Source: Candidatus Multivorans sp.
GTDB lineage: Bacteria > Acidobacteriota > Thermoanaerobaculia > Multivoradales > Multivoraceae
NCBI GenBank assembly: GCA_965224025.1
Contig: OZ245033.1
Span: 4,448,001 to 4,512,000, forward strand
DNA: 64,000 bases
Direction: 5' to 3'
Numbering within the stretch: position 1 is the first letter of the stretch; each line of letters starts with the position of its first letter. The notes under the pieces were generated by a model. It saw only the letters and a list, made by a program, of their open reading frames with translations. It did no database searches and was not told where the DNA came from. Shown here piece after piece: positions 24,369 to 43,000 of this stretch. A program made the position numbers and the translations under genes.

Positions 24369-25064
24369 GTGCGCTCCCATCGCCATACTCCCTTCGCACG
24401 GTGCCGAATCGCGCTCGTACTCGCCGCCTTGCTGGTCGCACCGGCGACCGCCCAGCTTGTCGAACGAGTGGTCGACGGCGACACGATCATCGTGGAGGGC
24501 ATCGGCAGCGTCCGCCTGATCGGCGTCGACACGCCGGAAACCGTCCACCCGAATCGGCCGGTCGAGTTCTTCGGCAAGGAAGCCAGCGCCTTCACGCAGA
24601 GGATGCTCGAGGGCAAACGCGTCCGGCTCGAGTACGACCAGGAGCGGCAGGACCGGTATGGCCGGACTCTGGCCTACGTCTACCTCCCCGACGGCACGTT
24701 CGCGAACGAGGAGATCATCCGCCGCGGCTACGGCCACGCCTACACCCGCTTCCCCTTCCGCCACCTGGAGCGGTTCCGCCAATTCGAGCTGGAAGCGAGG
24801 ACGAACCGACGCGGCCTGTGGGGGACCGCCGTCGGTGGGAGCGCCGGCAGTTCCGGCAGCACCGGTCGCTCATCGGCTGGAGATTCCCAAGTTGCACCGG
24901 CCGGCGTTCCCAGAACCGTCTACGTCACGAAGACCGGCGCCAAGTACCATCTGGACGGCTGCCGTTTCCTGAGCAAGAGCAGGATCCCGATGCCGCGGGA
25001 CGAGGCTGTGCAACGCTACGAACTGTGCGGCGTCTGCGCCGCGCGGCTGCGGTCGAAACGGTAG
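24369..25064 (+). CDS. Secreted thermonuclease (SNase) with C-terminal Cys/His metal-binding motif, copy 1
   Basis: Signal peptide; VVDGDT, VRLIGVDTPE, DRYGRTLAYV, RGLWG; then YVTKTGAKYH...C...CGVC. Confidence 0.9.
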   Translation: MRSHRHTPFARCRIALVLAALLVAPATAQLVERVVDGDTIIVEGIGSVRLIGVDTPETVHPNRPVEFFGKEASAFTQRMLEGKRVRLEYDQERQDRYGRTLAYVYLPDGTFANEEIIRRGYGHAYTRFPFRHLERFRQFELEARTNRRGLWGTAVGGSAGSSGSTGRSSAGDSQVAPAGVPRTVYVTKTGAKYHLDGCRFLSKSRIPMPRDEAVQRYELCGVCAARLRSKR

Positions 25065-25126
25065 CGAGAACTGGCCCAACCACTTTGAGGCCACTCATGA
25101 GTTGACCCCAACGTGGTACGTTCTGG

Positions 25127-25192
25127 AGTGGCGCAGCTTCCATGTGCCCCTTGCGGGCAGCCCTTGCGACTGCCCGGGGAAGGTGCGCCACT
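25127..25192. repeat. Nested imperfect inverted repeat (long hairpin)
   Basis: Nested stems AGTGGCGCA/TGCGCCACT, CTTCC/GGAAG and CGGGCAG/CTGCCCG. Confidence 0.6.
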
Positions 25193-25338
25193 GCCTTGGT
25201 AGCGGAGTCGGGTCACCACACTGGTGAACGGGGTACGCTCGCAGGCTCCCATCCCGGCTCTCGCGACGAGGCAAACACGCACAGTTCCCGTCTCTCCCGC
25301 TGCCGTCGGCAGACGGGCGCCGCCTACGGCACGTTCGT

Positions 25339-26077
25339 AATCGCGACGAGGCGCGGTTCGCCGATCGACGTGATCGGCGCATCGGACCTCGCCGTGCGGA
25401 ACACCGAGGGCACACGGCAGCGCCTCCTGAACGCTGACCAGGTCGTCTACCTTGCATCAGGCCGCGACGCGGCCCCGCGGCAAGGAGATCGAGCGGGGCT
25501 CGGACCACCTGCCGGATGTCGTCCTGGAGGTGGACTACAGCACCGACGCGAGTCGGCGCAAGCTCGGCATCTACGAGTCCTGGGGCTTCCCGGAGGTCTG
25601 GATCGAAGTGCCGGACGCCAGTTGGAGCTACCGCCCCAAGTCCCGGCGGTCCGGCGTGACGGTTCACTTACTGGAGGGCGGCCGGTACGTCGAGGCGGCG
25701 TCGAGCCGGGCATTCCCCGGCTGGACGGCCGAGGAGATCCACCGGGCGCTCAACGAGTCCGCGGTGTCAGCCACGACCGTCGACGTGCTGCGGCGGGTAG
25801 CCGACGCGCTCGCAGCGGTCGCGGGAACGGGTCCCGACGACGACCCCCTCTTGCACCGGGAGCTGAGAGCCGAGCTGAGAGCCGCGCCGAGGAGCGCCTG
25901 GACATCGTGCGGAGCGCGGTACGCGATGCGTTCGCCGCGCGCGCTCTGGCGATCACGCCAGCTCTGCGGACGTGGCTCGACGAAGTCGACCAGGCCCCGG
26001 ACGCGGCCGCGATCATCCGCCTGGCCTAGGAAAGCCGCGACGCGGACGACTTCGTGCGCCGCGCCCGGTTCCGACCG
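25339..26077 (+). pseudogene. Degenerate Uma2-family endonuclease
   Basis: GSPID...ADQVVYL, then PDVVLEVDYSTD...KLGIYESWGFPEVWIEVP. Frameshifts near 25451 and 25858, a stop at 26027, and no start. Confidence 0.7.
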
Positions 26078-26168
26078 GCACCCGAGACGCCTGAGAGCTT
26101 CGCCGAAACCCCTCTGGTAGCCGAGCCCGAGCCGCCGCTGCAAGCGGGTCGGTGGCGGCGATTCCGGG

Positions 26169-26795
26169 TCAGGACGTAACAGGAAGACCGAAGAGCCGTG
26201 GCTTGAAGTCCGGCTCGTTCACGATGCTGGCGCTGCTGCCCGTCGCGCGGATCACGAGCAGTCCCTTCCGCATCGCGTAGCGAATGGTCCCCTCGTGCGC
26301 CTTCAGGTACGCCACCGCTCCGAACAACCGCCGGGCCCGATAGCCCCGGAACAGCCTGGGAAGTTCGTCCAGCAACTCCACGAAGTCCGCAATGTGCTCG
26401 GGCTTCAGCGTCGTCTTGACCTCCACGGCGACCGCCTCTTCTCCGTTGGCGGCGAACAGGTCCACCTCCCGCAGCTTCGGATCCCGGGACAATCGAATCC
26501 GGGAGGCCACCGCTTCCACCTCCACGTTGCGCTCCTGGAGCAGCCTCACCAGGTCCCCTTCGACGAGCGATTCCATCAGCCGACCCCACTGGCTCGTGAA
26601 CAGATCCTCGGCGCGGCGCAGACTGCGCTCCGTTTTCCGCGCCTCGACCCGCAACTCCTCCATCTGCTTGCGAGCCTTCTTCCGGTACTCCTTCTCCGCC
26701 TTCTCGTTCTCCTTCTGGCGAAGCGCGACCTGGCGAAGAATCTCCCAGATCTCCTCCGGCGTGGCCGGGCGACGTTCGGTTTCCGTAGCGCTCAT
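26169..26795 (-). CDS. DUF3782-like coiled-coil + PD-(D/E)XK nuclease-fold protein, copy 1
   Basis: EEIWEIL coiled coil, QWGRLMESLV, EVDLFAANGEEAVAVEVKTTL, GAVAYL and GLLVIRATGSSA. Confidence 0.8.
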   Translation of the reverse strand: MSATETERRPATPEEIWEILRQVALRQKENEKAEKEYRKKARKQMEELRVEARKTERSLRRAEDLFTSQWGRLMESLVEGDLVRLLQERNVEVEAVASRIRLSRDPKLREVDLFAANGEEAVAVEVKTTLKPEHIADFVELLDELPRLFRGYRARRLFGAVAYLKAHEGTIRYAMRKGLLVIRATGSSASIVNEPDFKPRLFGLPVTS

Positions 26796-27057
26796 GGACA
26801 ACTCCCAGCGTGATTCTAGATTGGGCGGACGCCCGTGCGCCACCGCATCGCCGTCGATCGCGGCGCCAGGGCGCACCTGGTCCCTCTTCTGACATGGACG
26901 GAAAGCCGTGGCGGCACCCGGTATCAGCGCGCGGCCCAGCCTGGACAAGACGCCCGGCCGCCGACAGAATGCACCGGTCCAAACCGTCCAATCTTCTTGA
27001 CTTCGGGCTCGTCGGCGGTGACGCCCTGCATGGATGCCGCCGTTGCGCCCTCGCGAA

Positions 27058-27723
27058 GTGCATCCCTTGCTCCGCCATCCATTCGCCGTCCGCTGCGGAA
27101 TTGCGTTCCTGTTCGGCGTCCTGGCCGCCGCCGCAGTGCCAGGCCAACTGGTGGAGCGAGTCGTCGACGGCGACACGATCATCGTCGAAGGCGTGGGCCG
27201 GGTCCGCCTGATCGGCGTCGACACGCCGGAGACCGTCCACCCGAACCGGCCGGTCGAGTTCTTCGGCAAGGAGGCGAGCGCCTTCACGAAGCGGCTTCTC
27301 GAGGGGAAGCAGGTGCGGCTCGAGTACGACCAGGAGCGGACCGACCGTTACGGCCGCACCCTGGCCTACGTGTACCTGGCCGACGACACATTCGTGAACG
27401 CGGAGATCATCCGCCGCGGCTACGGCCACGCCTACACGCGTTTCCCCTTCCAGCACACGGAAGCGTTCCGCCAGTTCGAGCGAGAGGCCCGGAACAACCG
27501 GAGAGGCCTGTGGGGCGACGCGGTAGGCGGCTCGAACCCACGCGCCTCTGCCTCACCCGAAACACGGCGGTCCGCCGGCGGAACCGGCACGGTCTACGTG
27601 ACCCGCACCGGTCGCAAGTACCACAAGGAAGGCTGCCGCTTCCTGAGCAAGAGCAAGATCCCGATGAAGCGAAACGAAGCAGTGGAACGTTACGAACCCT
27701 GCGGCGTCTGCAAGCCGGACTGA
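27058..27723 (+). CDS. Secreted thermonuclease (SNase), copy 2
   Basis: Core nearly identical to copy 1; GTG 27058 aligns with the copy-1 start. Confidence 0.9.
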   Translation: MHPLLRHPFAVRCGIAFLFGVLAAAAVPGQLVERVVDGDTIIVEGVGRVRLIGVDTPETVHPNRPVEFFGKEASAFTKRLLEGKQVRLEYDQERTDRYGRTLAYVYLADDTFVNAEIIRRGYGHAYTRFPFQHTEAFRQFEREARNNRRGLWGDAVGGSNPRASASPETRRSAGGTGTVYVTRTGRKYHKEGCRFLSKSKIPMKRNEAVERYEPCGVCKPD

Positions 27724-27745
27724 CGCCGGCGGCGGCCCGGCTTCC

Positions 27746-27782
27746 ACACGGGCGGTTGACGCCGGAGCGGCAGTGCCGCGAC
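27746..27782 (+). repeat. 37-bp direct repeat, copy 1
   Basis: ACACGGGCGGTTGACGCCGGAGCGGCAGTGCCGCGAC, 34/37 identical to 29415-29451. Confidence 0.8.
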
Positions 27783-27804
27783 GCGGGGCGCGGACCGACT
27801 CGCC

Positions 27805-28395
27805 TCAGGAGAAGGCGCGGGGTCTGAAGTCCGGGTCGTTCACGATGCTGGCGCTGCTGCCGGTGGCCCGGATCACGAACAGGCCCCGGCGTTCCGCCTG
27901 CCGGACCACCGATTCGTCCGCCTCCAGGTACGCCACGGCCCCGTAGATCCGGTGACCGCCGTATGCCGGCAGCCACTCCCGGAACCGCGCCATCTTCTCC
28001 TCGAAGCGCTTCACGTCGCGCGGTCTCAGCGTCGTCTTGACCTCGACGGCAACCGCCTCCGTACCGTTCGCCGCCAGGATGTCCAACTCGAAATGCTCGC
28101 CGTTCCGACTCGCGGCAACTCTCTGCGTCGTCATCTCCACCGCTATCCCCCGCTGCTGGAGCAGCGGCACGAGATCGCCCTGCACCAGGCTCTCCATCAG
28201 CCGCCCCCACTGCGACGTGAACATGTCTTCCGCCTTCTTCAGCCGCCGGTCCGTCTCCCGCGTCTCCTCCCGGAGCTTCTCCCACTCCCTGCGGGCGGTC
28301 CTCTCGCCTTCCTTCTGGCGCGCCGCTTCCTGGCGGAGAATCTCCCAGATCTCCTCCAGTGTAGCTGGGCGATGTTCAGTCTGCGCGACGCTCAT
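27805..28395 (-). CDS. DUF3782-like coiled-coil + PD-(D/E)XK nuclease-fold protein, copy 2
   Basis: Paralog of 26169..26795: ELDILAANGTEAVAVEVKTTL and IYGAVAYL. Confidence 0.8.
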   Translation of the reverse strand: MSVAQTEHRPATLEEIWEILRQEAARQKEGERTARREWEKLREETRETDRRLKKAEDMFTSQWGRLMESLVQGDLVPLLQQRGIAVEMTTQRVAASRNGEHFELDILAANGTEAVAVEVKTTLRPRDVKRFEEKMARFREWLPAYGGHRIYGAVAYLEADESVVRQAERRGLFVIRATGSSASIVNDPDFRPRAFS

Positions 28396-28588
28396 GGGCA
28401 ATGCTCCTGACGTCATTCTAGATCCGGGTCGAGCGGGTAGCACGCGCGCCACGGCATCGCGGTCGAGGGACGGCGACGCGAAGCACTTGCTCCCTTTCTG
28501 AGAAGGACGGAGACACGCTGAAAGACCCGGCGGCCCTCGGCCAACCCTGGAGTCAACCGGAGCCCGGGGAACCGGGTAGCATGGCCCC

Positions 28589-28816
28589 ATGGACTGGCGA
28601 GAGCACATCACCGTCGACCCCGAGATCTGCCATGGAAGAGCCTGCATCACCGGTACCCGAGTGCTCGTTACCGTGGTACTCGACAACGTGGCGGCCGGCC
28701 TGAGTCCGGAGGAAATCGCGCAGAGCTACCCTTCGATCACCACGCGTTCCGTACGCGCAGCCATGTGCTATGCGGCGGAACTGGCGAAGGAGAGGGTGGT
28801 GGCTTTCTCCGGCTGA
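28589..28816 (+). CDS. DUF433-family antitoxin-like protein
   Basis: ITVDPEICHGRACITGTRVLV...EEIAQSYPSI...AAMCYAAEL. Confidence 0.9.
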   Translation: MDWREHITVDPEICHGRACITGTRVLVTVVLDNVAAGLSPEEIAQSYPSITTRSVRAAMCYAAELAKERVVAFSG

Positions 28817-28931
28817 GTTCCAGAATGCGATTCTCCCGACGACGTGACAACATTGGCACGCGACGAGGTCGCCTGGAAACCAGGGAGAACCGCTCGCTAT
28901 CGGACGTTGCGAGTCACCGAGGACATAGACC

Positions 28932-29156
28932 ATGACGAGCCCAAGAGTGGCCGACCTGACGGTAGGCGAGTTCAGAGAACTCTGCCGGGATACGTTCGCG
29001 CAGGTCGTGGAAGAGGTTCTGGACGATCCGGATCGCGGGCGGGCGCTGCATGACGACGTTGCGAAGAGGCTTGAACGCTCGCTCGCCGAAGTCGACGCCG
29101 GTGGAACCACCGCTAGCCACGCGGAAGTCGCTGAGAGACTCCGAACTTCCCGGTGA
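28932..29156 (+). CDS. Putative antitoxin
   Basis: SD GAGGA; RVADLTVGEFRELC...DPDRG.L; overlaps the downstream RelE-like gene. Confidence 0.75.
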   Translation: MTSPRVADLTVGEFRELCRDTFAQVVEEVLDDPDRGRALHDDVAKRLERSLAEVDAGGTTASHAEVAERLRTSR

Positions 29157-29428
29157 CGGACGACGTTGTCTGGACGGCGGACGCCGAAGCAGACCTTCAT
29201 CGACTGGACGCCGCGGCGGCGGACCGGATCATGGCGAAGATACGGTGGCTGGCGGAGAACGCCGACAGCGTCAGAGTAGAGACATTGGCGGGCCGCTGGC
29301 GAGGTGTCCGCAAGCTCCGAGTAGGGAGCTACCGCGTTCTCTACACTCGCGATTCGGTTGCAAGACGGATTGTCGTCCACATCGTCGGGCATCGCCGGGA
29401 GATCTACAAGTCCAACACGGGCGGTTGA
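29153..29428 (+). CDS. RelE/ParE-family toxin
   Basis: AEADLHRLD...KLRVGSYRVLY...IVGHRREIYK. Confidence 0.9.
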   Translation: MTDDVVWTADAEADLHRLDAAAADRIMAKIRWLAENADSVRVETLAGRWRGVRKLRVGSYRVLYTRDSVARRIVVHIVGHRREIYKSNTGG

Positions 29429-29475: not shown

Positions 29476-30531
29476 CTAGCGGGCCCCGCCGCGCCGCAGG
29501 CCCGCAGGCAGGCCACCGGTCGGGTTCGCGTTCTTGTAGAACCGGGACTCGAGCACCTGCATCCGCCGTTTGTAGATCTCCTTCTGGTCCGCCGCGACGC
29601 GGTCGAACGCTCTGACGAAGAACCGGCACTGACGTTCGACGCTCCACTGGTAGACGGGGAGGGTCTGGCGCAGAAACTCGGCTTCCGTGAGTAGCCGGCT
29701 CGTCTGGACCGACCCCACCGGTAGTTGCTTCCGCGCGGCCTCGTGTTCGGGGGCCCGGGCGGGAGCCACGATGAAGCCGCCGGGCGCCAACGCGACATCG
29801 AACAGGTAGGCGACCGTGCCGTTGCCGTCGTACCAGCAGCTCGGGTGATCCAGTCCGCCGCCTCCCCGTGCCGCCGCCTGCGCCTCCAGCCTCTCGATCC
29901 GCTCCCGGGCTCGATCGAGCTGCTCGGCAAGAACAGCCGGATCCGCACCAGCGGCCTCCATCTCGTCCCGGCTTTCGATCGCCTCGCGAACTTCCGCCGG
30001 AGACATGCCGCGCCGCGCGGCCGCGTTCAGCGCCCCTGCCATTTCGCGCAGTTCGCCCGGCGTCGCCTCGACGCCCGCCCCCTTCATTGCCTGTTCGAGT
30101 TCGGCGTGGGCGTCGGCCGTCTCCACCGCGCGATGCGCCGACAGCAGCTCCTCGGCTTCGGCCGGCGACATGCGGCCGATCTCCGACTCCTGGATCCCTG
30201 CGACGACCTCCTGCACCGACGGCTCGGGAAACGCGGTCTCGATCTCGCGCACGAGCTCCCGCCAACTGTCCGCGTCCTCGTGCTCGTTCATCCGCTCCCG
30301 CAACACGGACCGGAGAACCACCGGATCCTCCGGCAACGCCTCGTCCTGGAACAGAGTCTCGATCTGCTCGTAGCGCACCAGCCTCTGTTCAGCCTCCTCG
30401 CGCCTTTCCGACTCACGCGCCAGCAAAGCGGCCAGCGCCAGCAGCAGCACGAAGATGATCAGGATGGCGATCTCGGCCATGGTCAGACCGAGGACGAGGC
30501 CCCGCGGGAACGTCCGCCCGCGGTTCGTCAC
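29476..30531 (-). CDS. MotB/ExbD-like single-TM protein with coiled-coil stalk and Cys-pair C-terminal domain
   Basis: GTG start overlaps the upstream stop. LTMAEIAILIIFVLLL resembles MotB TYADL.TLL..FF; C-terminal PSCWY...CRFFV. Confidence 0.65.
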   Translation of the reverse strand: MTNRGRTFPRGLVLGLTMAEIAILIIFVLLLALAALLARESERREEAEQRLVRYEQIETLFQDEALPEDPVVLRSVLRERMNEHEDADSWRELVREIETAFPEPSVQEVVAGIQESEIGRMSPAEAEELLSAHRAVETADAHAELEQAMKGAGVEATPGELREMAGALNAAARRGMSPAEVREAIESRDEMEAAGADPAVLAEQLDRARERIERLEAQAAARGGGGLDHPSCWYDGNGTVAYLFDVALAPGGFIVAPARAPEHEAARKQLPVGSVQTSRLLTEAEFLRQTLPVYQWSVERQCRFFVRAFDRVAADQKEIYKRRMQVLESRFYKNANPTGGLPAGLRRGGAR

Positions 30532-31733
30532 CAGGTGCCCCAGCCCTGCGCCCGCCGCCGCTCTCGCACCTCCTCTTCGGCCACGGCATCGAGCCGGTCC
30601 GCCATCCGCAGCAGAGACCGGTTCATCGCCTCCATGCGCTCCGGCGCAGCGTGCAACTGGCGCCTCGCGGCAGCGAGCTCGCTCACGACCGCGCGCGTCC
30701 CCTCGCTGTACCGGTCGATGTGGGCTCGCAGCGACACGAGCGCGTCCGTGGCGTTCCGGAAGCCGTTCGCCGCCCGCGCGTTCGCCTGCGAGAAGCGACG
30801 GTTCTCTTCGAGGATCTCCGCCAGCCGCGCCACCGCGCTCTGGTTCTGCTCCATGACCCGCAATTGACCGGCCTCCAGTCGCCGCAAGCCCTCCGCCACG
30901 GACAGGAACTCCCTCGCCAGACCCTGGAACTGCCGCGATGTCGGCTCGATGAGTTCCTCGATGAACTCGCGCCGGAAGTCGACGGAGCGGAAGTGTTCCA
31001 GCATCTGCCGAAGCGAGTCGTTCACGCCCTGCGCCTCGGAAACGAACAGTTCCCGCTGGGCCTGGATGTCCGCAACCGCCGCGGCGGCGGACGCATCGAC
31101 CTGGGCGACACGCTCCCGGAGCGCCCCGAACCTCGCGGCGCCCCCTTCGAGCTCTTCGATCTGTCCTTCGAGCGCCGTGCCGGCGGCGCTCACACCCTGG
31201 TCCAACTGCTGGAACACCCGCTTGGCCTCGGTCCGGAACTGCCGGAACTCGTCGATCGAGTACTCCATCTCCGCTCGCAGGCGGCGATTCGCGCGCGCCA
31301 GGTCCTCGCGGGCCCGCGTCTCGGCATCGGTCGTTGCTTCGTCCCGCGGCTGATTCAGGAGGATGCGGCCCGCGAGCCCGAGGATCGTGCTGGTCAGTGC
31401 GAGACCGAAGTTCGTGATGATCGCGCTCGTCGCTCCCTCCGTGTTGAACTGGTAGAGCGAGATGGCCAGCGAGATCAGGGTGTAGAGAAAGCCGAGGTAG
31501 TAGAAGTTGTCCCCCGCGAACTCGACCCGCGGACGCAGATCGGGCCACTCGACCAGCAGCAGGGCATAGCTCCCCATCAGCAGGACCGGCAGGACGACCG
31601 CGAGGATCGGACTGTCGCTGAGTGACTTCATCAACAGGATGGCTACTGCGCCACCGAGAAAGAAGCCCAGGAACAGACCGCGGCCGCTCGGCAACTCGGG
31701 TCCAGCGGGCAGGCGGCGGGACCCAGGCGCCAT
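30528..31733 (-). CDS. MotA/TolQ/ExbB-like 4-TM protein with long C-terminal coiled-coil tail
   Basis: YYLGFLYTLISL...FGLALTSTILGL matches the channel helices (LGLLGT...ALITT.GL); helical tail of roughly 250 aa. Confidence 0.7.
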   Translation of the reverse strand: MAPGSRRLPAGPELPSGRGLFLGFFLGGAVAILLMKSLSDSPILAVVLPVLLMGSYALLLVEWPDLRPRVEFAGDNFYYLGFLYTLISLAISLYQFNTEGATSAIITNFGLALTSTILGLAGRILLNQPRDEATTDAETRAREDLARANRRLRAEMEYSIDEFRQFRTEAKRVFQQLDQGVSAAGTALEGQIEELEGGAARFGALRERVAQVDASAAAAVADIQAQRELFVSEAQGVNDSLRQMLEHFRSVDFRREFIEELIEPTSRQFQGLAREFLSVAEGLRRLEAGQLRVMEQNQSAVARLAEILEENRRFSQANARAANGFRNATDALVSLRAHIDRYSEGTRAVVSELAAARRQLHAAPERMEAMNRSLLRMADRLDAVAEEEVRERRRAQGWGTW

Positions 31734-32575
31734 CAGTTCACGCCGTCGATGCGGGCGACCCGATTCAGAGTGCCTCCCTGGTTTTCGATCCACCGCTCCC
31801 AGAAGTCAATCAGGCCGCGGGTGTCGTCCAGACGCTGGTGGGCGGCGCGTTGCACGAACAGGACCTCGACCGCGGTGCCCCGCAGGTCGGTGGCCAGAGC
31901 AACGGCGCCGGCCGTCGCAGCGAACGCGTCGTAGTCGACCGCCTGGCGGAAGAATGAGAGGTTGTCCGTGTTCTGCATCAGGTCCGACACGAGGATCAGA
32001 CGTTTCGGAAGGTCCGCGTACTCGTGCCGGCCGAGAACGGAAACCGCCACGCTCTGCACGCTCTCCATGAGCGGCGACGCGGGCGCCTCCTCGCGGCCGA
32101 GGAGGTCCCCGAAGAGATTCTCGAGCGGCCGCTCGAACCGCTCCTCGAGGCGGCGCCGGATCAGGCGCGGGTTCTCGGTCCACTCGCTTGCCGCCTCGGG
32201 ATCGCCGGGGTGACAGACGGACAGCAACGGGTCGCCGATCTCACTGCCCACCGGCTTCGCCTCGTAGGCCAGGACCATCTCGTCTTCCCGGCTCTTCGAA
32301 ACGTACTCGTCGAGATGCGCGAGCACATCGGCGCGGCTGATCGCGCCGACCCGATCCGTCACGTCGACGAGGATCGCGGTCAGAGCCGCGGGGCCACTCT
32401 CCGGACAACCCGTTTCGGGGTCACGGTCCGGCGGCTTCGGCGCGAAGATCGTGTAGCGCGCGCCGACGGCCAGCAGAACGAGCAGGACGACCGCGATCGT
32501 TCCACCAAGAAGCGCGTCTCTCGGCGAGAGGTCTCCGCGCCGGGAGCGGCGACGCCGGCGTCTACGAGCCGGCAT
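31733..32575 (-). CDS. Single-TM VWA-like protein
   Basis: N-terminal TM; AILVDVTD (MIDAS-like), SPLMES and RLILVSDLMQNT. Confidence 0.65.
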   Translation of the reverse strand: MPARRRRRRRSRRGDLSPRDALLGGTIAVVLLVLLAVGARYTIFAPKPPDRDPETGCPESGPAALTAILVDVTDRVGAISRADVLAHLDEYVSKSREDEMVLAYEAKPVGSEIGDPLLSVCHPGDPEAASEWTENPRLIRRRLEERFERPLENLFGDLLGREEAPASPLMESVQSVAVSVLGRHEYADLPKRLILVSDLMQNTDNLSFFRQAVDYDAFAATAGAVALATDLRGTAVEVLFVQRAAHQRLDDTRGLIDFWERWIENQGGTLNRVARIDGVN

Positions 32576-33950
32576 CGACCGCGGGCACCTGACCGGGCGA
32601 ACGTGTGCGAGAGATCGAACCCTCCAGGTCCAGCCGCGACTGCGTCTGCTCCCACTCCTCGTGCACGCGGTGGAGCGCGGCCTCGTACTGCCGGTTCAGG
32701 GGATCCAGATCCACCTCCTCGACCACACCGGCGTCGCGGCGTTCCCGGTGGGGCGCCGGCGGCGCCATCGTCCAGGGCGTGGCGTGGGCCTCGGGATGGC
32801 CACGATCGAAACGCACCGAACGGTTCGCTTCCCGGTACTCCTCGATCAGCATGGTCCCGAAGCGCTGCAACTGCTCGACATGAGCGTCGAATGCCGCCAG
32901 CAGCTTCGCCTCGCTCTCCGCCGCGCGCCGCCGCTCGACAGGCTGGCTCTTCGCCTGGTGGGCCGTACGCCGGATGGCGTCGAGGCCCTCTTCGCGGATC
33001 GTCCGCAACTGATCGACCACGTCCTGCCAGAGGTCGTCGTAGTCGGCGCGGGCGTCCTCCATCTTGCGGTGCTTCCGGGAGTAGCCGGGATAGGCATCGC
33101 CGAAGAGCTTGCGGCCGTCGAAGAAAGCGACGCCGGAGAAGAAGAAGCCGAGCACGAAGAGAAGCCACGACTCCGCGTCTTGCAGCCCCAGCGGCGAGGC
33201 CTGGAAGCGGCTCAGGGCCTCGGCGCCGATGTTCTCGCTCAGATCGGCCGAGGCGTCCCGGAAGTGCGCGAGTCCCAGGTTGAGCACGAGCGCAGTGCCG
33301 AGCCAGCCGAGGATGCCGAGCACGCCCACTCCCTTGAGGAGGAGGCTGATATGGCTTACATAGCGACTGACGGGTCCGAAGAAGAGGGCCGGCAACACCA
33401 GGTTCACGACGCTGAAGCCGAGCGCCAGACCCCATCCGCCGACCAGCCCGCCCTCGCTGCCTACGGCAAGGAACGCGCCGTTCAGACCGCTCTCGATGAC
33501 GAACAACAGAACCACGAGTCCGACCAGGATCGCCGTCGTGCGTGAACTCACGTAGTCCGGCTCCCGGTCCAGCCCGTTGCGGTGCTTGAAGTCGAAGAAG
33601 TCGCGCCGCTTGCGCTCGAACTCGTGCAGGCTCGCCTTGAGTACCTGCAGTTCGCTCTGCTCGACCTCCCGGAACTCGGTCGCCGCCTTGCGCGACGACG
33701 ACTCCAGGTCACCGGCGAGCACCGCCTGGTCGAGCTGGTCCAGGTGGCGGTCGACCTGCTCGAGCTGCGCATCGAGCGCCTGGACCGCCTCCTTCTTCTT
33801 CGCCTCGATGAACTCCTCGATCTCGGTCTGACCAGGATCCTCCGCCGCCTCGAGGGGCGGCATCCCCCGTTCGCCGGCCCGGCGCCCCAACCGCTCCGGC
33901 TCGATCTCCGCGCGCAGATCCTCGATCAAGAGTTCCGGGAAGGCCTTCAT
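32562..33950 (-). CDS. 4-TM membrane protein with N- and C-terminal coiled coils
   Basis: Four TMs (IESGLNGAF, GGLVGGW, NLGLAHFR, SWLLF) followed by DAYPGY and a helical tail. Confidence 0.8.
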   Translation of the reverse strand: MKAFPELLIEDLRAEIEPERLGRRAGERGMPPLEAAEDPGQTEIEEFIEAKKKEAVQALDAQLEQVDRHLDQLDQAVLAGDLESSSRKAATEFREVEQSELQVLKASLHEFERKRRDFFDFKHRNGLDREPDYVSSRTTAILVGLVVLLFVIESGLNGAFLAVGSEGGLVGGWGLALGFSVVNLVLPALFFGPVSRYVSHISLLLKGVGVLGILGWLGTALVLNLGLAHFRDASADLSENIGAEALSRFQASPLGLQDAESWLLFVLGFFFSGVAFFDGRKLFGDAYPGYSRKHRKMEDARADYDDLWQDVVDQLRTIREEGLDAIRRTAHQAKSQPVERRRAAESEAKLLAAFDAHVEQLQRFGTMLIEEYREANRSVRFDRGHPEAHATPWTMAPPAPHRERRDAGVVEEVDLDPLNRQYEAALHRVHEEWEQTQSRLDLEGSISRTRSPGQVPAVDAGS

Positions 33951-35599
33951 CGCCGGTTTGGGGAGTTCCCTACCTCCACCGGCAGCGCGAAGGTGAACAG
34001 GGCCTGGCCGGCGGCGATCGTCACGTGCTGCTGCCCGGCGGCCTCGTAGCTGATCGGAGCCGCGAAGACGTTGCCGCCCAGCCGGCGATGCCAGAGCTCC
34101 TCGCCCGTCTCAGCGTCGAGGGCGTAGAAGATGCCGGCCACGCTGCCGCCGAACACGAGACCGCCCTTCGTGGCGAGCAGGCCGGACGTGGAACGGGGCT
34201 GGACCTGGTACTCCCACTTGCGATCGCCGGTGAGCGGATCGATCCCTCGCACCGCGCTGACGTACTGGTCGCCAGGCCCGGCCGGCTTGCCGTAGCCGCC
34301 GACGAAGAGTTCGCCTTCTTCGTACTCTGCCTCGGCCATGTAGTAGAGCATCTCCGCGTCGTAGGCCTGGATGTAGAAGAGGCCGGTGTCGGGACTGTAG
34401 GTGGGCGAGAACCAGTTCGCGGCGCCGCCGATCGTCGGTGCGACGAGGGTTCCCTCCTCGCTCGGGAACATGTTCGGTACCCGGATCGGCCGGCCGGTGT
34501 CCTGATCGATCCCTTCGGCCCAGGTCTGGCGCGCGAACTCGCGCGCGAACAGGAACTCGCCGGTCTCGCGGTCCAGCAGGTAGAAGAAAGCGTTCCGGTT
34601 GGCGAAGGCCAGCAGCTTGCGCTGCCGGCCCTGGTACTCGGCATCGAACAGGATCGGCACCTGGCAGGCGTCCCAGTCGTGGACGTCGTGGGGCGTGAAC
34701 TGGAAGGCCCAGACGATCTCGCCGCTGTCCGGGCGAATCGCCAGCATGGAATCGGAGTGCAGGTTGTCGCCTTCGCGTACCTCGCCGTTCCAGTCCGGCC
34801 CGGGATTGCCGGTACCCCAGTAGAGCAGGTCGAGTTCGGGGTCGTACGAACCGGTCATCCAGGTCGGGGCGCCGCCGGTCTTCCAGGAGTCACCCTCCCA
34901 GGTGTCATGGCCCGGTTCGCCCGGTCCCGGAATCGTATGGGTCCGCCAGCGAAGTTGGCCGGTGGCCGCGTCGTAGGCGTCGAGAAAGCCCCGGATGCCG
35001 TACTCGCCGCCACCGATCCCGGTGATCACCAGATCGCGGACGACCATCGGCGCCGCCGTGATCGAGTGCCCCGAGCGCGGGCTGCCCACCTCCGTGTTCC
35101 AGATCACGGCGCCCGTCTTCGCGTCCAGCGAAACCAGGTGCGCGTCGATCGTGCCCATGTAGAGCCGGTCGCCACGAACCGCAACCCCCCGGTTTTGCTT
35201 GCGGCAGCAGAGTGCGAGTTGATCCGGCAGCTCGTGAACGTAGGACCAGTACCGCTGGCCAGTGCGCGCGTCGAGCGCCCGCACGACGTTGTCCGGCGTC
35301 GTCGCGTACATCACCTCGTCGATCACCAGCGGCGTCGTCTCCACCCGCCCGAGGGTCGGCAGTTGGTGGACCCAGCGGAGTTGGAGCTTCGACGCATTCG
35401 AGCGGTCGATCTGATCGAGGCGGCTGAAGCGTTGGCTTTCGTACTGGCCCGAGTACATGAGCCAGTTGCCCGGCTCGTCCGACGCCGCCTTCAACCGTTC
35501 GTAAGACACCTCGCTCTGAGCGGAGACGCCCAGCGCAGCAAACAGGAGCGGCAACGCGGAACGGACGGCGGCCTTCGTCTTCGACTCGATCATCACCAC
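33947..35599 (-). CDS. PQQ-dependent alcohol dehydrogenase (methanol/ethanol family)
   Basis: RFSRLDQI, vicinal CC (LCCRKQNRG), GGEYGIRG, WGTGNPGPDW and TPHDVHDWD. Confidence 0.93.
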   Translation of the reverse strand: MVMIESKTKAAVRSALPLLFAALGVSAQSEVSYERLKAASDEPGNWLMYSGQYESQRFSRLDQIDRSNASKLQLRWVHQLPTLGRVETTPLVIDEVMYATTPDNVVRALDARTGQRYWSYVHELPDQLALCCRKQNRGVAVRGDRLYMGTIDAHLVSLDAKTGAVIWNTEVGSPRSGHSITAAPMVVRDLVITGIGGGEYGIRGFLDAYDAATGQLRWRTHTIPGPGEPGHDTWEGDSWKTGGAPTWMTGSYDPELDLLYWGTGNPGPDWNGEVREGDNLHSDSMLAIRPDSGEIVWAFQFTPHDVHDWDACQVPILFDAEYQGRQRKLLAFANRNAFFYLLDRETGEFLFAREFARQTWAEGIDQDTGRPIRVPNMFPSEEGTLVAPTIGGAANWFSPTYSPDTGLFYIQAYDAEMLYYMAEAEYEEGELFVGGYGKPAGPGDQYVSAVRGIDPLTGDRKWEYQVQPRSTSGLLATKGGLVFGGSVAGIFYALDAETGEELWHRRLGGNVFAAPISYEAAGQQHVTIAAGQALFTFALPVEVGNSPNRR

Positions 35600-36471
35600 T
35601 ACTTCGGCCGCAGTGAGTAGAGGTAGGCCACCAGATCGTCAAGATCCCGTCCGCGGAAGAAACTGCCGAGCGGCGGCATCAGCGACTCCTCGGGTTTCTC
35701 GATCGCTGTCAGGTCCGTCTTCTGGAAGGACCTGAGGTTCTCGAACTCATCGAAGAGCTGGATCGAGTAGCGGTCCTCGTTGCGCAACACGCCGCGCACG
35801 ATGCCGCCTTCGCTGGTTCGCACTTCGACGGTGCGGTAGTCATCGTCCATCGCCTCCGAGGGGTCGGCGATCGAGGCACGGATGTGCGCCGGCGCCCGCC
35901 GCCAACCCAGATCGCTGAGGTCGGGGCCGAGCCGGCCGCCCGATCCGTTCAGGCGGTGGCAATCGGAGCAGGAGCCCCGGCTCAGGTACAGACTTCGCCC
36001 TCGCCTCGGATCACCCGGCAGATCTTCGTCGCCGCCAATCCGGCTGAGCGAGCCTATGTAGGACACGACCTGCCAGATCTTCTTGTCCGGCTGATAGATG
36101 CCGCCCATGCCCGTGTTCGGGATGCCGGTCAGGATGTTGCGGAACAAGGCGGCATCGCTGCTGCCGTGCCGGAACACGCCGCGGGTGAGGTCGGGCCCGT
36201 CGCCGCCGGTACCGTCCGCTCCGTGGCAGAGCGAGCAACTGCGCCGGAACACACGGGCACCGGCCTCGATATCGGCCTCGGCGGTGTGGGGATTCTCCTG
36301 AACGCGACCCTGAAGCGCTCGCGAGAGGACGTTCTGAGCGGAGACCGGGTTGCCGCATACGATGACCAGGGCGAAGAGAGCCCCCCCGAAAGCTCCCCGG
36401 CAACGGCCGAATGGACATCGTCCAGGCTCTGCTCCGGCGCTCCTGGCAGGTGTCAATTCGACCGGAAACAT
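35599..36471 (-). CDS. Di-heme cytochrome c with putative heme-binding domain
   Basis: CSLCH and CSDCH, GPDLT, GIPNTGM, GPDLSD, SLMP and DLVAYL. Confidence 0.88.
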   Translation of the reverse strand: MFPVELTPARSAGAEPGRCPFGRCRGAFGGALFALVIVCGNPVSAQNVLSRALQGRVQENPHTAEADIEAGARVFRRSCSLCHGADGTGGDGPDLTRGVFRHGSSDAALFRNILTGIPNTGMGGIYQPDKKIWQVVSYIGSLSRIGGDEDLPGDPRRGRSLYLSRGSCSDCHRLNGSGGRLGPDLSDLGWRRAPAHIRASIADPSEAMDDDYRTVEVRTSEGGIVRGVLRNEDRYSIQLFDEFENLRSFQKTDLTAIEKPEESLMPPLGSFFRGRDLDDLVAYLYSLRPK

Positions 36472-36644
36472 GGCGGTGAGCGTAGCACCAGGATCAGGCC
36501 GAAGGCTGCAACCCGGCGCCCGGAGTGGCGTATAGTCGGGTACTGCGCACGCCACATCGGACGCACCAGCGCTCCAAGTCGTAGACGCATCCAGCATCCG
36601 CAAGGTTGCATGAAGACCTTCCACCCGACTCTCAAGGACACGAC

Positions 36645-38219
36645 ATGAACCGCACCCCCTACCGCGTTCTCGCGGCAACGACCATGGTCATCGGACCGCT
36701 CGTCCTGCCGGCGACGGGCCTCGCCCGGAACCTGGACCAGCCCACCTTCGTGGACGACATTGCGCCCATCCTCCACGAGAACTGCGTCTCCTGCCATCAG
36801 CCGGATGAGATCGCGCCGATGGCGCTGCGGACCTACCGCGAGGCCCGACCGTGGGCGAAGTCCATCGCGCGCGCCGTCGAGAACCGCGAGATGCCCCCCT
36901 GGGACGCCGACCCCGGATTCGGCCCGTGGAAGAACGACATCTCCCTGAGCGCCACCGAGATCGCCGCGATCACGCGGTGGGTCGCTTCGGGCGCACCGCG
37001 GGGCGACGGCGATGAACCCGTCTACGAACAGCCCGCCGAGCAAGCCGAGTGGGCGTTCGGCGAACCGGACTGGGTCTACGAGTTCGACCCCTTCGATGTC
37101 GCCGCCGACGGCCCGGACGAGTTCGCCGTCATTCCAATCGCGCCCGGCTTCGACGAGGACCGCTGGATTCGTGCCGTGGAAGTCCAGCCCGGTGACCGCG
37201 AGGTGCTCCATCACTTCATCCTGTGGCGGGCATCCGAGGCCAGCACGGACGTCCAGGACGCCTGGATCGACGGTTGGGCCGCCGGCGCCGGGCCGACGGA
37301 ACTCCCGGCCGGCACCGCCCGCTTCCTGGCCAAGGGGCGCGGACTGCTCGGCGACTTCCACTACCACCCGAACGGCACCGCCTCGACCGACAAGACCCGC
37401 ATTGGCGTCTGGTTCGCCGAGCCCGAAGATGTCGAGAAGGAACTGATCAACCTTTGGGTGATGAACGCCACCTTCAAGATCCCGGCCGGCGACCCCAACT
37501 ACGAGGCGAGCGCAAGCCATGTCTTCTCGGAAGATGTCGTCGTCCGCTCCCTCGCGCCGCACATGCACTACCGCGGCAAGGACATGAGCTACACCGCCTA
37601 CCTGCCTGACGGCGAGGAGCGGGAGCTGCTCAGCGTCAGCCGGTTCGACTTCAACTGGCAAACCGGCTACGAGTTCGACGAGCCCCTGGCGCTTCCGGCC
37701 GGCACCCGCATCGAGGTTGTGGCCCATTGGGACAACTCGGAGGACAATCCGAACAACCCCGACCCGACGGTCAACGTCACCTGGGGAACCGAATCGACGG
37801 ACGAGATGCTGATCGGCTTCGTCGACTACGTGGCCGCGGAAGGCGTGAGCCCCCAGCCCGCCAGCGCGGTGATCGCCAAGCTGGCCGAGTTGGGGATGAC
37901 CGATCCGGGGCAGGCTTGGCGCTTCGACATCACCCGCCAACCAGGCCAGGGGCCCGAAGCGACCGCCATGCTCCTGCCCCGCGACGGCAGGCCGGGCGGC
38001 TGGTTCGTCCAGTTCGGCACCCTCGTGCTGCCGGCGCCGATCGTCGACATCGTCTGGGACGGCAACAACGTGACCGCCACCGCGGAGACGCCCGGCAACA
38101 CGATGCAACTCAAGGGTTCCATCCAGGAGGACGGCACGCTCCGGATGCACATGGGACCGGGCGAGATGATCGGTACGCCGGCCGAGAACGAGACGCCGTT
38201 CACCCTGGCGGGCCAGTGA
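36645..38219 (+). CDS. Cytochrome c + copper type II monooxygenase (PHM/DBH)-like secreted protein
   Basis: SD AAGGA; CVSCH, MPPW, VLHH, FHYH, PHMHYRGK, FNWQ and DEM. Confidence 0.85.
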   Translation: MNRTPYRVLAATTMVIGPLVLPATGLARNLDQPTFVDDIAPILHENCVSCHQPDEIAPMALRTYREARPWAKSIARAVENREMPPWDADPGFGPWKNDISLSATEIAAITRWVASGAPRGDGDEPVYEQPAEQAEWAFGEPDWVYEFDPFDVAADGPDEFAVIPIAPGFDEDRWIRAVEVQPGDREVLHHFILWRASEASTDVQDAWIDGWAAGAGPTELPAGTARFLAKGRGLLGDFHYHPNGTASTDKTRIGVWFAEPEDVEKELINLWVMNATFKIPAGDPNYEASASHVFSEDVVVRSLAPHMHYRGKDMSYTAYLPDGEERELLSVSRFDFNWQTGYEFDEPLALPAGTRIEVVAHWDNSEDNPNNPDPTVNVTWGTESTDEMLIGFVDYVAAEGVSPQPASAVIAKLAELGMTDPGQAWRFDITRQPGQGPEATAMLLPRDGRPGGWFVQFGTLVLPAPIVDIVWDGNNVTATAETPGNTMQLKGSIQEDGTLRMHMGPGEMIGTPAENETPFTLAGQ

Positions 38220-39872: not shown

Positions 39873-40025
39873 AACGAAGAGGACGGTTCCACACGCTGTC
39901 AGCAAGTCGGGGCGTGCTCCAGTTTCGGAGGCCGTCGACTTCGGTAACGTAGCGGGCGAGAGTCGCGTCGTGAGCCGAGCCCCTACACGAAGCGTCGCCC
40001 GGCAGGACGCGGGAGCGGTGGTGCT

Positions 40026-43000
40026 ATGAGCGCTGACTCCAAGGGCCGCGACCTTTTCATCGTCGACAACAGCGTCTCCGGCTGGACCGGGCTCCGCTAC
40101 CTACAGGAGTGGTCCGGTATCGCGAAGGCGTTCGACATCGCGACTGGCTACTTCGAGATCGGCGCTCTCCTCGCCCTCGACGGCAAGTGGCAGGGACTCG
40201 ACAAGATCCGGATCCTGATGGGCGCCGAGACCACCCATCGGACGCGACAGGCACTCCTTGAGGCCGTCCGCAAGCAGAGGCTCTGCGGCGACTCGATGAG
40301 AGCATCGAGGAAGACAAGCTGCCCAACCCGTTCCTGCGCGGGACTCCGGCAATCGTCGACGCTCTCCGCTCAGGCCAAATCGAGTGCCGTGTCTACGACC
40401 AAGCCAAGTTCCACGCCAAGGCGTACATCACTCACGCTAAGTTCGAGGTCATGGGTGCCCAGGCGTTGGTGGGTTCCAGCAACTTCACGCGCCCCGGCCT
40501 CGGCAAGAACGTCGAGCTGAACGTTCAGGTTCAGAGCGCCCGTGAGGTCGCTCAGCTCCAGGAGTGGTTCGAGACGCACTGGAACGAGGCGCGAGAGGTC
40601 ACCGACGACGTTGTCCAAACTATCTCCCGCCATACCCGCCTCTACTCGCCGTTTGACGTCTACGCGAAGGCTCTGCAGCAGTACTTTCGGGGGCACGAAC
40701 TGACCGAAGCCGAGTGGGAACAGTCACGATCACGGGTGTTCCAGCAACTCGACCGCTACCAGAAAGAGGCCTACTGGGCCCTGATGAAGATCGCACGGCA
40801 GCACGGCGGCGCGTTCCTCTGCGACGGCGTCGGTCTCGGTAAGACGTTCGTCGGCCTGATGTTGATCGAGCGGCTCATCTTGCACGAGGGTAAGAGGGTA
40901 GTGCTGTTCGCACCCAAGGCCACGAAGGAGGGTGTTTGGGAGCCCCACTTACGCCGCTGGCTTGATCACGTTGGCGGCTTCGGCGGCGGCGAAGACTTCA
41001 GCAACCTGGCCGTCTTCAGTCACACCGACCTCGGCAGAAAGGGCGACTTCCCGACGCGATTCGAACGGATCACGGAACTTGCCGATGTCGTGGTCATCGA
41101 CGAGGCCCACCACTTCCGCAACCCGGGCCGCCGAGGGGATCCCGAGAAGGGTATCGAGCCATCGCGCTACTACCAGCTATTCAACCTCCTCGACAACGAG
41201 GAACGCGCCAAGACGGTGTTCATGTTGACGGCGACGCCCATCAACAATCGACTGAGTGACTTCCGCCACATGACCGAGCTCTTCAGCCGCCGCGAAGAGG
41301 CCTACTTCGCACGCACGCTTGGCGTCAACCACCTGCGGGCGCACTTCAACCAGATGGAGAAAACGCTCCGCGGTCGACTCGGTCATGACGCCGCGGACGC
41401 CGCCGATCACATGACCGAGGCCCAGGACATCCTCTTCACTGACGCCTTCTTCCGCGAGCTCGTCGTCCAGAGGAGCCGCGCGTACGCGAAAGCAAGCCAG
41501 AAGCAAGAACGCGATGAACCAGCCACTTTCCCCGACCGGCAGGCGCCCCAGGTAGCGGAGTACTCGATCCGCACGACTTACGGGCAGATGCTCGACCTCT
41601 TCGAGAAGGCGTTCGCGAAACAGAACCCACTCTTCACGCTACCGATGTACTACCCACTGCATTGGTACAGGGGGGCCGACGCCAACATCGATCCGTTCGA
41701 GGAGAACCGCCAGAAGCAGGTCGTAGGACTCATCCGGACCAACTTCCTCAAGCGCTTCGAGAGCTCGGTCGCTGCCTTCGAGCTCTCCTGCGAACGCCTG
41801 CTCCAGAAGCTGCTCGCTTTCCTCGAGGTACACAGCGAGACCGACTCCGAGAGGAACAGCCTCGAGCGCTGGAAGGCGCAGCACGCGGACGACCTCGGCC
41901 ACAGCCAGCGGCAGCGGCAGCTCTGGGGCGATTCCGACGAAGCGGACGATGAAGACGTTGTGCCCCAGGAGCTGCTCGACGCGGTCGAAGGCCTCGAGCG
42001 GACGGAGTACAACGTCGAAGAGATACTGACCGAGACCTTCATCGACCTCGGAGAGATCGTGAAGTTCCTGAACGAGGCCCGCCGATTCGAGCCGAAGCAC
42101 GACGACAAGTTGAAGAAGCTCATCCGCCTGCTGAAGTCGAAGGAACTCGCCGACCAAAGGTCCTGATCTTCACCGAGTTCGCCGACACGGCCCGCTACCT
42201 CAAACGCCACTTGGACCAAGCTGGCATTGAGGGCGTCGAGCAAGTGGACAGCGCCACTAAGAAGAACCGCTCAGAAGTCATCCAGAACTTCGCGCCCTAC
42301 TACAACGGCCTCTCTTCCCCCGAGCTCGCCGAACAGCGCCGCCAAGAGACCCGGGTCCTCATCTCCACGGACGTCCTTTCCGAAGGTCTCAACCTCCAGG
42401 ACGCCTCCCGGATGATCAACTACGACATCCACTGGAACCCCGTCCGCCTGATGCAACGCATCGGCCGAGTAGACAGGCGCATGGACCCGGTTGTCGAAGA
42501 CCGGCTCGTGGCCGACCATCCCGAGGCAGGCGCGTCGCGGGGAAGGGTCTGCTTCTGGAACTTCCTCCCACCCGCGGAACTCAACGAGATCCTCTCGCTC
42601 TACAAACGGGTTACGCAGAAGACCCTGCTGATCTCCAAGACCCTCGGCATCGAGGGGAAGAAGCTCCTCACGCCGGACGATGACTACGACGCGCTGAAGG
42701 AGTTCAACCACGCCTACGAAGGCTCTCGAACTGCTGTCGAGGACATGCACCTCGAGTATCAGGAACTGCTCCAAGCCGACCCTGAGTTGGATGCGCGTCT
42801 GGCTCGCTTCCCCGGAGCGATCTTCAGCGGCCGCAGGCGCCCGGCGAAGGGTGTGCGGGGCGTCTTCTTCTGTTACGCGCTCCCCGCCCTCGACAAGGAG
42901 AAGAACGAGTTCACGCAGGAGGCCGGTACCACGGACTGGTACCTCTACGACCTCGACCGCGAGAACATCCTGGACGAACCGCGGGACATTGTGGCGAGTA

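Follow-up and report, generated by a model that had tools for sequence, protein, structure and literature searches.

To our knowledge, only a handful of 5:2 ion-driven motor families are known (flagellar, Ton, Tol, gliding/type IX secretion, and Zorya), and each of them opened a field. In Zorya, where ZorA5B2 is combined with ZorC/D, ZorE, or ZorF/G, the ring-type subunit ZorA carries a long cytoplasmic coiled-coil tail that reaches about 500 residues in E. coli. Passages of PMC11946911 describe the ZorA tail as a pentameric coiled coil and report that its truncations abolish defense. Parts of PMC12204202 propose that inner-membrane-tethered vWA proteins encoded beside TolQR-like motors act as force transducers; in one of the two families described, an SHLS helix is combined with a ~100-residue linker and a tetratricopeptide repeat neighbor, and in the second, which has no TolR gene, the vWA protein itself bears the axle helix with its Asp. 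Here, we analyze a row of four overlapping genes, g1 to g4, in a 64,000-nucleotide stretch of DNA from Candidatus Multivorans sp. (assembly GCA_965224025.1, contig OZ245033.1, positions 4,448,001 to 4,512,000 of the forward strand; this whole stretch is the window, and positions below are those of the window), and ask how it compares with these systems.

In our reading, the row is a conserved, horizontally spread inner-membrane module with a cryptic relative of the 5:2 motors at its core, most likely serving as an envelope conflict or defense system, and we place about an even chance on this reading as a whole. That g3 and g4 form a motor-type pair is its more probable part; a role in conflict or defense is proposed tentatively and falls short of an even chance. 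Observed directly are the conserved genes, their motifs, the exchange of domains in g4, and the nuclease linkage; assembly, ion use, topology, and defense are inferred from these. The open reading frame (ORF) calls for the four genes are as follows.

g1: 32562–33950, minus strand, 462 residues
g2: 31733–32575, minus strand, 280 residues
g3: 30528–31733, minus strand, 401 residues, ATG start
g4: 29476–30531, minus strand, 351 residues, GTG start

These four minus-strand ORFs fill 29476–33950 in the order g1-g2-g3-g4, as a model's first-pass annotation of the sequence had reported, and the junctions it gave were borne out when read directly: a 14-nt overlap between g1 and g2 (ATG...TAG), a 1-nt overlap between g2 and g3 (TGATG), and a 4-nt overlap between g3 and g4 (GTGA). 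The GTG start of g4 is correct, because the segment RGRTFPRGLVLGLT, which precedes an internal ATG, falls inside a motif conserved across the family.

Scanning one genome per species with the peptide pattern YYLGFLYT yielded 100 stretches, 89 of which encode a g3 relative, and 80 loci were kept. Of these, 73 have calls for all four genes and the remaining seven end at a contig edge; gene order was identical in 73 of 73, with median junctions of −14, −1, and −1 nt. The loci span Acidobacteriota, Alpha- and Gammaproteobacteria, Desulfobulbaceae, Latescibacterota, and Nitrospirales, and also come from a Bdellovibrio-like bin, Pelagibacter, Cyanobium, and a Methylomicrobium plasmid. When the ORFs of 55 diverse loci were clustered, only the g1–g4 families recurred widely (48–55 loci each). 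Because the order is kept in every complete locus, the gene row is more than chance, and the co-conservation elsewhere on which the earlier reading depended is found. The family is also large: in a search of 1.84 billion representatives, a g2 profile matched 3343, 2405, and 1208 clusters (50% identity) at E ≤ 1e-3, 1e-10, and 1e-30, respectively, and the best 150 g2 clusters are uniform in length (about 240–300 residues).

In Pfam, NCBIfam (June 2026), and PADLOC-DB v2.0.0 (2023), no protein of the row passes a curated cut-off, and the PADLOC check proposed with the first-pass annotation named no system. In PADLOC, g2 and g4 had zero matches, g1 matched only LeoBC weakly, and g3 matched only ZorA below threshold. 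At E ≤ 0.01, no Pfam family matched any of 33 g2 orthologues, and any single family matched at most two of 30 g1 orthologues. The database relatives of g3 (76) and of the g4 C-terminus (103) are all unnamed or “hypothetical”, and RefSeq lists g1–g3 as “hypothetical protein” in six plasmid copies, save one g3 named “methyl-accepting chemotaxis protein”. This exception (L119, plasmid pRltTA1B, 6663–8012) is probably mis-annotated, presumably because of its coiled-coil tail. Pipelines name no gene of the row other than OmpA-type copies of g4. No description of the row was found in full-text literature, where supplements lay outside the scope and a prior listing is therefore possible, and the available passages of PMC12505986 do not describe it. 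Comparison of sequences thus supports a real, co-conserved module without a named family. The phrase “uncharacterized motor family” in the first-pass annotation stands for the co-conserved row and the missing family name; the motor likeness is carried only by sub-significant signals that agree with one another.

We consider it very improbable that the row has been catalogued before, for instance as a Zorya subtype or among the candidates of a newer defense database. The PADLOC-DB release used dates from 2023 and later releases lie beyond it, and in so large a family others may have noted the genes. Against this stand the PADLOC result for g2, g3, and g4, the lack of an NCBIfam model for any of the four genes, and the RefSeq and full-text literature results.

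The strongest single argument for a motor is a domain swap in g4, the candidate axle subunit. Every g4 orthologue opens with the motif [YF][RP]RG-x3-G-[LF]-T-x-x-E, followed by a hydrophobic helix; in the window copy the motif reads FPRG-x3-GLTMAE and places Glu20 at the cytoplasmic end of the single transmembrane (TM) helix. Glu20 never varies, being present in 37 of 37 sequences in one set and in 64 of 64 in another. MotB, ExbD, and TolR have an essential aspartate at the corresponding position of the axle helix. The ZorB counterpart, according to passages of PMC11946911, is D26. By eye, the g4 segment SMADIAFLLIIF resembles the TMAEIAILIIF of the phylum's own ExbD, a likeness that stays visual because hhalign cannot separate so short a helix from controls.

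Behind this shared N-terminus, the C-terminal domain differs between orthologues. Seven of 37 carry a domain with a GHTD...NLD...RRIEIR pattern, Pfam OmpA (PF00691) is detected in five of the 37 (best E 3.1e-8), and the Prokaryotic Genome Annotation Pipeline calls g4 an “OmpA family protein” in four of six plasmid copies. A predicted OmpA domain swapped in behind a common N-terminus is the architecture of MotB and ZorB, and the OmpA-bearing orthologues therefore strengthen the MotB reading of g4. Of the earlier description of g4 as a MotB-like single-pass protein, the one TM helix can be kept, with the invariant glutamate and the OmpA domain of five orthologues on its side; at the level of ExbD/TolR profiles the likeness did not rise above controls. 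The accompanying statement that no OmpA-like peptidoglycan-binding domain is present is right for the window copy and wrong for the family.

In the window copy, a helical linker leads to a compact alpha/beta C-terminal domain (about residues 230–340) that was modeled with a per-residue confidence (pLDDT) of 93–98 and contains invariant C232 and C302 and the motifs PSCW and CRFFVR. Pfam found no PF00691 in this copy, and no OmpA-like chain was among the fold matches listed. Across the family, neither MotB_plug nor ExbD was matched by any of 37 g4 orthologues in Pfam at E ≤ 0.01. The two kinds of C-terminal domain are mutually unrelated by hhalign (P 0.32). A fold search of g4 against the PDB returned nothing at E ≤ 0.001; its best match, ribosomal protein uS11 (E 0.16, probability 0.28), was taken as chance. 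Given the paired cysteines and the N-in topology, we argue that the C-terminal domain is probably periplasmic.

The candidate ring subunit, g3, is modeled by AlphaFold2 (AF2) with four helices (18–38, 42–62, 72–97, and 101–126) followed by two long helices, although the model is weak (mean pLDDT 60.4, predicted TM-score 0.32). Conservation in 37 sequences is concentrated in the last two of the four membrane helices, with Y78, Y79, L80, G81, F82, L83, Y84, and T85 in helix 3 and F109, G110, A112, T116, G119, and R123 in helix 4. YYLGFLYT and FGxAxxxT, the corresponding motifs, show little or no variation, and T85 and T116 show none; these two threonines would line a pore. Their spacing is 31–32 residues in 25 of the 37 sequences (by motif pattern), and in the phylum's ExbB/TolQ proteins it is 33 in 18 of 20 pattern-matched sequences (30 scanned).

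Several profile libraries point to the same helices. Pfam MotA_ExbB (PF01618) aligns its positions 55–102 with residues 76–121 of the window g3 TM domain (E 0.006, 16.8 bits), NCBIfam exbB2 aligns with residues 74–121, and PADLOC ZorA2 aligns from residue 79, all below threshold. When 37 diverse g3 TM domains were scanned singly, PF01618 was the top Pfam family, matched by 21 (E ≤ 1; best 7.4e-4), and the next family was matched by seven; in a PADLOC scan ZorA models made up nine of the 13 families matched. In a Foldseek search of 350,542 chains, the top match was a chain of the type II ZorAB complex (E 0.36, probability 0.93, TM-score 0.54 on the target), and 12 of the 48 matches listed were ZorAB, ExbBD, TonB-ExbBD, TolQRA, or PomAB chains. 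The full-length g3 profile against the PDB gave coiled-coil noise and, at E 1.3e-4, a chain of ZorA whose domain score is poor. In the ESM Atlas, the best matches to the TM domain (0.88) are unnamed clusters, and a cluster with PF01618 in 13% of its members scores 0.85, which we treat as a lead only.

The clearest feature of g3 is its tail, a predicted heptad coiled coil that would lie in the cytoplasm and is ZorA-like. It is 274 residues long here and ranges from 74 to 879 residues over 79 loci, with a median of 280. In the window copy it is composed largely of A, R, E, L, and Q with three prolines, and it has a hydrophobic period of 3.50 residues with a power of 141, compared to a shuffle mean of 18.8 (sd 11.5); none of 500 shuffles reached this value. 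The first-pass annotation had put the coiled-coil tail at ~250 residues, close to the roughly 270 found. Its claim of a four-pass protein whose last helices match MotA/ExbB keeps the four helices and the invariant threonines, with a match that stays below every cut-off, and the structural match it looked for goes no further than ZorAB, ExbBD, TolQRA, and PomAB chains above E 0.001, a ZorAB chain ranking first.

Two loci depart from the usual arrangement of g3 and g4. At L033:7953–10961, the g3 orthologue has 1002 residues and a tail of 879, and its g4 lies ~0.9 kb further downstream than usual. In a close relative (L016:7551–10019), g3 and g4 form one ORF of 822 residues without the g4 TM motif, which may reflect a deletion, a fusion, or an assembly error.

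A number of results speak against a motor. No single test of motor homology is significant, and it is several weak signals that agree. The 16.8 bits of the window g3 against PF01618 lie below the gathering cut-off of 22.9, Foldseek of the weak g3 model gave zero matches at E ≤ 0.001, hhalign of a g3 TM profile with 30 ExbB/TolQ sequences was not significant (P 0.022, probability 2%), and a PDB profile search with the TM domain gave zero matches at E ≤ 10. The AF2 model of g3 has no counterpart, between its helices, to the cytoplasmic domain of known ring subunits. The acidic residue of the g4 helix is a glutamate, not an aspartate, and hhalign of the g4 N-terminus with ExbD/TolR was no better than controls. 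A complex prediction with four g3 TM domains and two g4 N-termini, a stoichiometry that is not 5:2, gave a score of 0.03 (mark 0.32) and argues neither for nor against.

These results leave room for a different, doubtful explanation, in which the row encodes a non-motor membrane scaffold or signaling complex and the motor likeness of g3 and g4 reflects convergent short TM motifs. Every motor-specific similarity falls below significance, hydrophobic helices with small or polar residues often yield weak profile matches, other membrane families also matched g3, and the g3 TM domain (residues 18–126, ~110 residues, with interhelix loops of 3–9 residues in the low-confidence AF2 model) is smaller than any solved ring subunit. 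Convergence accounts less readily for the 21 of 37 diverse g3 proteins that match PF01618, triple the next family, for three profile libraries aligning the same two helices, or for the motor chains that make up 12 of the 48 fold matches listed from among 350,542 chains. Moreover, g4 independently displays the MotB architecture, an acidic TM residue with OmpA, in part of its family. A motor-type g3/g4 pair is the reading that we carry forward.

The remaining two genes encode further membrane proteins. g2 has one N-terminal TM helix, and its globular part is predicted to be periplasmic (N-in) because 8 K/R within 15 residues precede the helix. Residues D71, D74, and D198 are invariant in 33 sequences, as are C57 and C121, and the family motifs are TAxLxD-x-TD, SPIMExIQ, and LIxVSDLLQH; the single TM helix and the DVTD and SDLMQN motifs noted at first pass are present and conserved. 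The metal-site pattern is altered, with D71-x-T-D74, S167, and S197-D198 rather than the D-x-S-x-S, T, and D of a vWA metal site. In the ESM Atlas, g2 scores highest (0.93) with a cluster labeled “VWFA domain-containing protein” and 0.86 with a VWA_2 cluster, and hhalign with 28 VWA_2 domains gave P 0.0098 in an alignment of 108 columns that keeps the order of the three metal-site motifs. A PDB search returned ORC1 at E 0.5 only. There is thus modest support for a periplasmic, vWA-like alpha/beta domain, and the first-pass label “VWA-like” finds backing in the ESM Atlas and hhalign and none in Pfam, where 0 of 33 orthologues matched. Conservation is lacking in the TM region of g2, which contains no histidine, acidic residue, or SHLS-type motif, and the globular domain begins about 20 residues past the helix.

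g1 has four hydrophobic segments (about residues 140–277) between large N- and C-terminal helical domains, both predicted to be cytoplasmic because of the distribution of positive charge. In an alignment of 30 sequences, E153 and N157 in the first helix and R231 after the third are invariant, and D285, P288, DDPYPGYG, and YREAN are conserved after the membrane part, a pattern of polar residues and motifs that suggests a functional membrane core. The four membrane segments claimed for g1 were recovered; the coiled coils claimed on both sides of them were not, as neither end domain has a significant heptad signal (shuffling matched or exceeded it 66 and 176 times out of 500). No relatives of g1 appeared in meaningful numbers in Pfam or at all in the PDB sequence search, and hhalign showed no relation of g1 to ExbB or to g3.

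A nuclease gene accompanies the row often enough to be a candidate accessory partner, a linkage that had gone unremarked in the first-pass annotation. In the window, the genes beyond g4 are the following.

24369–25064, plus strand: second SNase paralogue (PF00565, E 5.2e-26)
25452–26120: Uma2-family gene
26169–27287 and 27805–28686: Hjc-like PD-(D/E)XK paralogues, two nuclease-fold genes
27034–27723, plus strand: SNase/thermonuclease-family gene (PF00565, E 1.8e-28)
28589–29428: DUF433 gene and a ParDE pair

Toxin–antitoxin (TA) and nuclease-fold genes thus stand between g4 and the SNase gene at 27034–27723. Searching the whole 5.14-Mb genome (three contigs) gave two PF00565 matches, both within 5 kb of g4. 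As a separate observation, 24369–28686 looks like a duplicated block with two SNase paralogues, two Hjc-like paralogues, and one Uma2 gene.

Apart from g1–g4 themselves, no real gene family is encountered near the row as often as SNase (12 of 55 diverse loci). By a local hidden Markov model search, an SNase-like ORF lies in the flanks of 28 of 80 loci; in 19 of these 28 it is no more than 700 nt from the row, on either side and on either strand. The 146 nearest-neighbor ORFs from 41 loci match SNase more often (7) than any other Pfam family, with Endonuclease_1 and Excalibur at two each. In close relatives, an SNase homologue is found downstream of g4 in 16 of 25 and is directly convergent in several; it adjoins the row in four of six plasmid copies, and on pRL11 of Rhizobium johnstonii 3841 it starts 1 nt past the end of g4. 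Nearly all row-linked SNase ORFs (28 of 29) have a signal-like hydrophobic N-terminus. The SNase may therefore be a loosely attached fifth component of the module, and an exported nuclease suggests nucleic acid at the envelope as the target.

The distribution of the module is patchy. In a scan of the phylum with the g2 profile it was present in nine of 301 genomes and three of 185 genera (the tally includes an unpublished genome, G024, with no match); it occurs in six of six genomes of the genus, the window genome included, and in none of the six other genera of the order. We found 24 plasmid records with the module (Rhizobium 12, Paracoccus 6, Sinorhizobium 3, Microvirga 2, and Tistrella 1), 11 of them conjugative, and in one plasmid copy insertion sequence (IS) elements flank a five-gene cassette. 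Other neighbors across the loci include resolvase, transposase, PIN, restriction–modification (R-M), TA, Fic (SoFic), and GajB-like helicase genes, along with many housekeeping genes.

In a g2 tree of 56 rows, from which 20 of the 25 close relatives were left out, sequences cluster by phylum (two changes for Acidobacteriota, eight for Pseudomonadota) with some mixing between phyla, and Thalassospira falls as an exception within a Latescibacterota/Acidobacteriota clade. The tree does not by itself prove transfer. Some organism labels (L075, L060, L062, and L039) look wrong or indicate very recent transfer; the “Mycobacterium sp. KBS0706” copy falls within the Inquilinus clade, and copies from Dehalococcoidia and Spartobacteria bins hardly differ from those of Methylococcaceae. 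We read the module as an accessory trait, passed from lineage to lineage and by now fixed in this genus.

Other observations count against a defense role. No g2 match was found in 50,697 phage records, and the neighbors are a mixture of defense-type and housekeeping genes. In all 25 close relatives, the row holds a fixed place after a PQQ-dehydrogenase gene, which also fits a housekeeping role in the envelope.

Chief among the alternatives, and unlikely though to be taken seriously, is an ion-driven transducer of force in the envelope with a physiological role, in which g3 and g4 energize g2 as TolQR and ExbBD energize TolA and TonB. Such a machine may serve outer-membrane upkeep, adhesion, or, with the nuclease, uptake and digestion of extracellular DNA. 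Parts of PMC12204202 propose motor-driven transducers of this kind for membrane-tethered vWA proteins near TolQR-like genes. The predicted N-in topology of g2 with a vWA-like domain in the periplasm fits, as do the fixed chromosomal place in the genus and the presence of the row in all six of its genomes, the occurrence of the module in streamlined Pelagibacter genomes, and a linked nuclease that appears to be exported rather than cytoplasmic. However, the g2 helix has no conserved histidine or SHLS-type motif, and g2 cannot span the periplasm like TolA or TonB, because only ~20 residues separate its helix from the globular domain. The patchy occurrence, the plasmid-borne copies, and the IS, TA, and R-M neighbors of some loci fit an accessory trait better, and the same explanation does not account for g1 or the long g3 tail.

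For the envelope conflict or defense reading, we propose the following arrangement. g3 would form the outer ring through its last two helices with their invariant threonines and extend its coiled-coil tail into the cytoplasm. g4 would be the axle, with Glu20 in place of the proton-carrying aspartate and its C-terminal domain anchoring it to the wall, by an OmpA-type domain in some orthologues and by a new cysteine-containing domain here. Ions would pass via Glu20 and the threonine ring of g3, and their flow would turn g3 together with its tail. On the periplasmic face, g2 would be the likely binding or sensing part; on the cytoplasmic side, g1 would be the likely output or effector partner of the g3 tail; and the exported SNase would act as a frequent fifth partner. 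A system of this form would couple a periplasmic event to ion flow. In its fullest version, this amounts to a new and widespread motor class that uses glutamate, has a minimal ring subunit, is wired to a vWA sensor, a four-pass partner, and an exported SNase, and intercepts entering phage or plasmid DNA at the envelope or in the periplasm, not in the cytoplasm, and we regard that complete combination as improbable.

Upstream of g1 lies the PQQ-dehydrogenase gene (33947–35599), whose stop overlaps the g1 start as ATGA and which the first-pass annotation did not mention. As a member of the module it was rejected, since it occurs in only one of 55 distant loci, far off and on the opposite strand. 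Beyond it, the ORF at 35599–36678 is cytochrome c-like by eye. Simple promoter and terminator scans of the region gave nothing useful. The named relatives are Thermoanaerobaculia and “Candidatus Multivorans” metagenome-assembled genomes of the Acidobacteriota. G+C content across the window is 0.62–0.72; it is 0.62–0.64 at 40001–50000 and 56001–60000, compared with 0.67–0.72 elsewhere, and with the ORFs at 40026–43170 this part may be another acquired region.

Compared with known systems, the module comes closest in outline to Zorya and to Ton/Tol. Like Zorya, it combines a ring-type subunit, whose long coiled-coil tail is predicted to be cytoplasmic, with a partner that crosses the membrane once and bears an acidic residue in its TM helix. 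Some g4 orthologues add an OmpA-type wall-binding domain to this partner, and the operon holds further genes of unrelated function; ZorA profiles match g3 weakly and a ZorAB chain is its best fold match. It differs in the four closely packed helices of g3, which carry no membrane-proximal cytoplasmic domain, in a tail of ~270 residues, in an axle glutamate where ZorB has aspartate, in partners (g1 and g2) that are membrane proteins, and in a linked nuclease that is predicted to be exported, whereas ZorD is cytoplasmic. A PADLOC scan of g1–g4 found no relatives of ZorC, ZorD, ZorE, ZorF, or ZorG, in line with the earlier statement that ZorC/D/E are missing, and Zorya partner genes were absent from the top families of the 146 neighbor ORFs.

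With ExbBD-TonB and TolQR-TolA, the module shares two threonine-bearing ring helices spaced about 31–33 residues apart, an axle helix that resembles ExbD by eye, and a third single-pass protein, g2, encoded alongside and carrying a predicted periplasmic domain. In contrast to them, it scores below all curated thresholds and without significance in hhalign, and g2 has neither a TonB/TolA-like linker nor an SHLS/His helix; the source genome has ordinary ExbB/TolQ genes elsewhere. The OmpA-bearing g4 orthologues have the architecture of MotB (acidic TM residue, linker, and OmpA), as in MotAB/PomAB, whereas no flagellar genes lie near the row and g3 lacks the torque-generating cytoplasmic domain.

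The first-pass annotation had regarded the pairing of a motor with a VWA protein as novel. Such pairs are already proposed in parts of PMC12204202, so a motor plus vWA is not unprecedented; what stands is that this module differs from both of the families described there. It shares with them a membrane-anchored protein of predicted vWA fold beside genes of 5:2 type. Against the traits given in those parts, g2 has neither defining one, a separate axle gene (g4) is present, the ring gene g3 is no recognizable tolQ, and g1 is additional.

The module thus resembles Zorya or Ton/Tol in outline, yet lacks defining features of each and has three partners of unknown family. It is common, from sponge-associated Acidobacteriota to Rhizobium plasmids and Pelagibacter, and a tractable, cultivable carrier exists in Rhizobium johnstonii 3841 (plasmid pRL11, RL_RS31080–31100). 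Its association with an exported nuclease yields a concrete hypothesis about the place where the module acts. If the motor assignment is true, it would add to the known 5:2 families one with an unusually small ring protein, an axle glutamate, and interchangeable periplasmic anchors.

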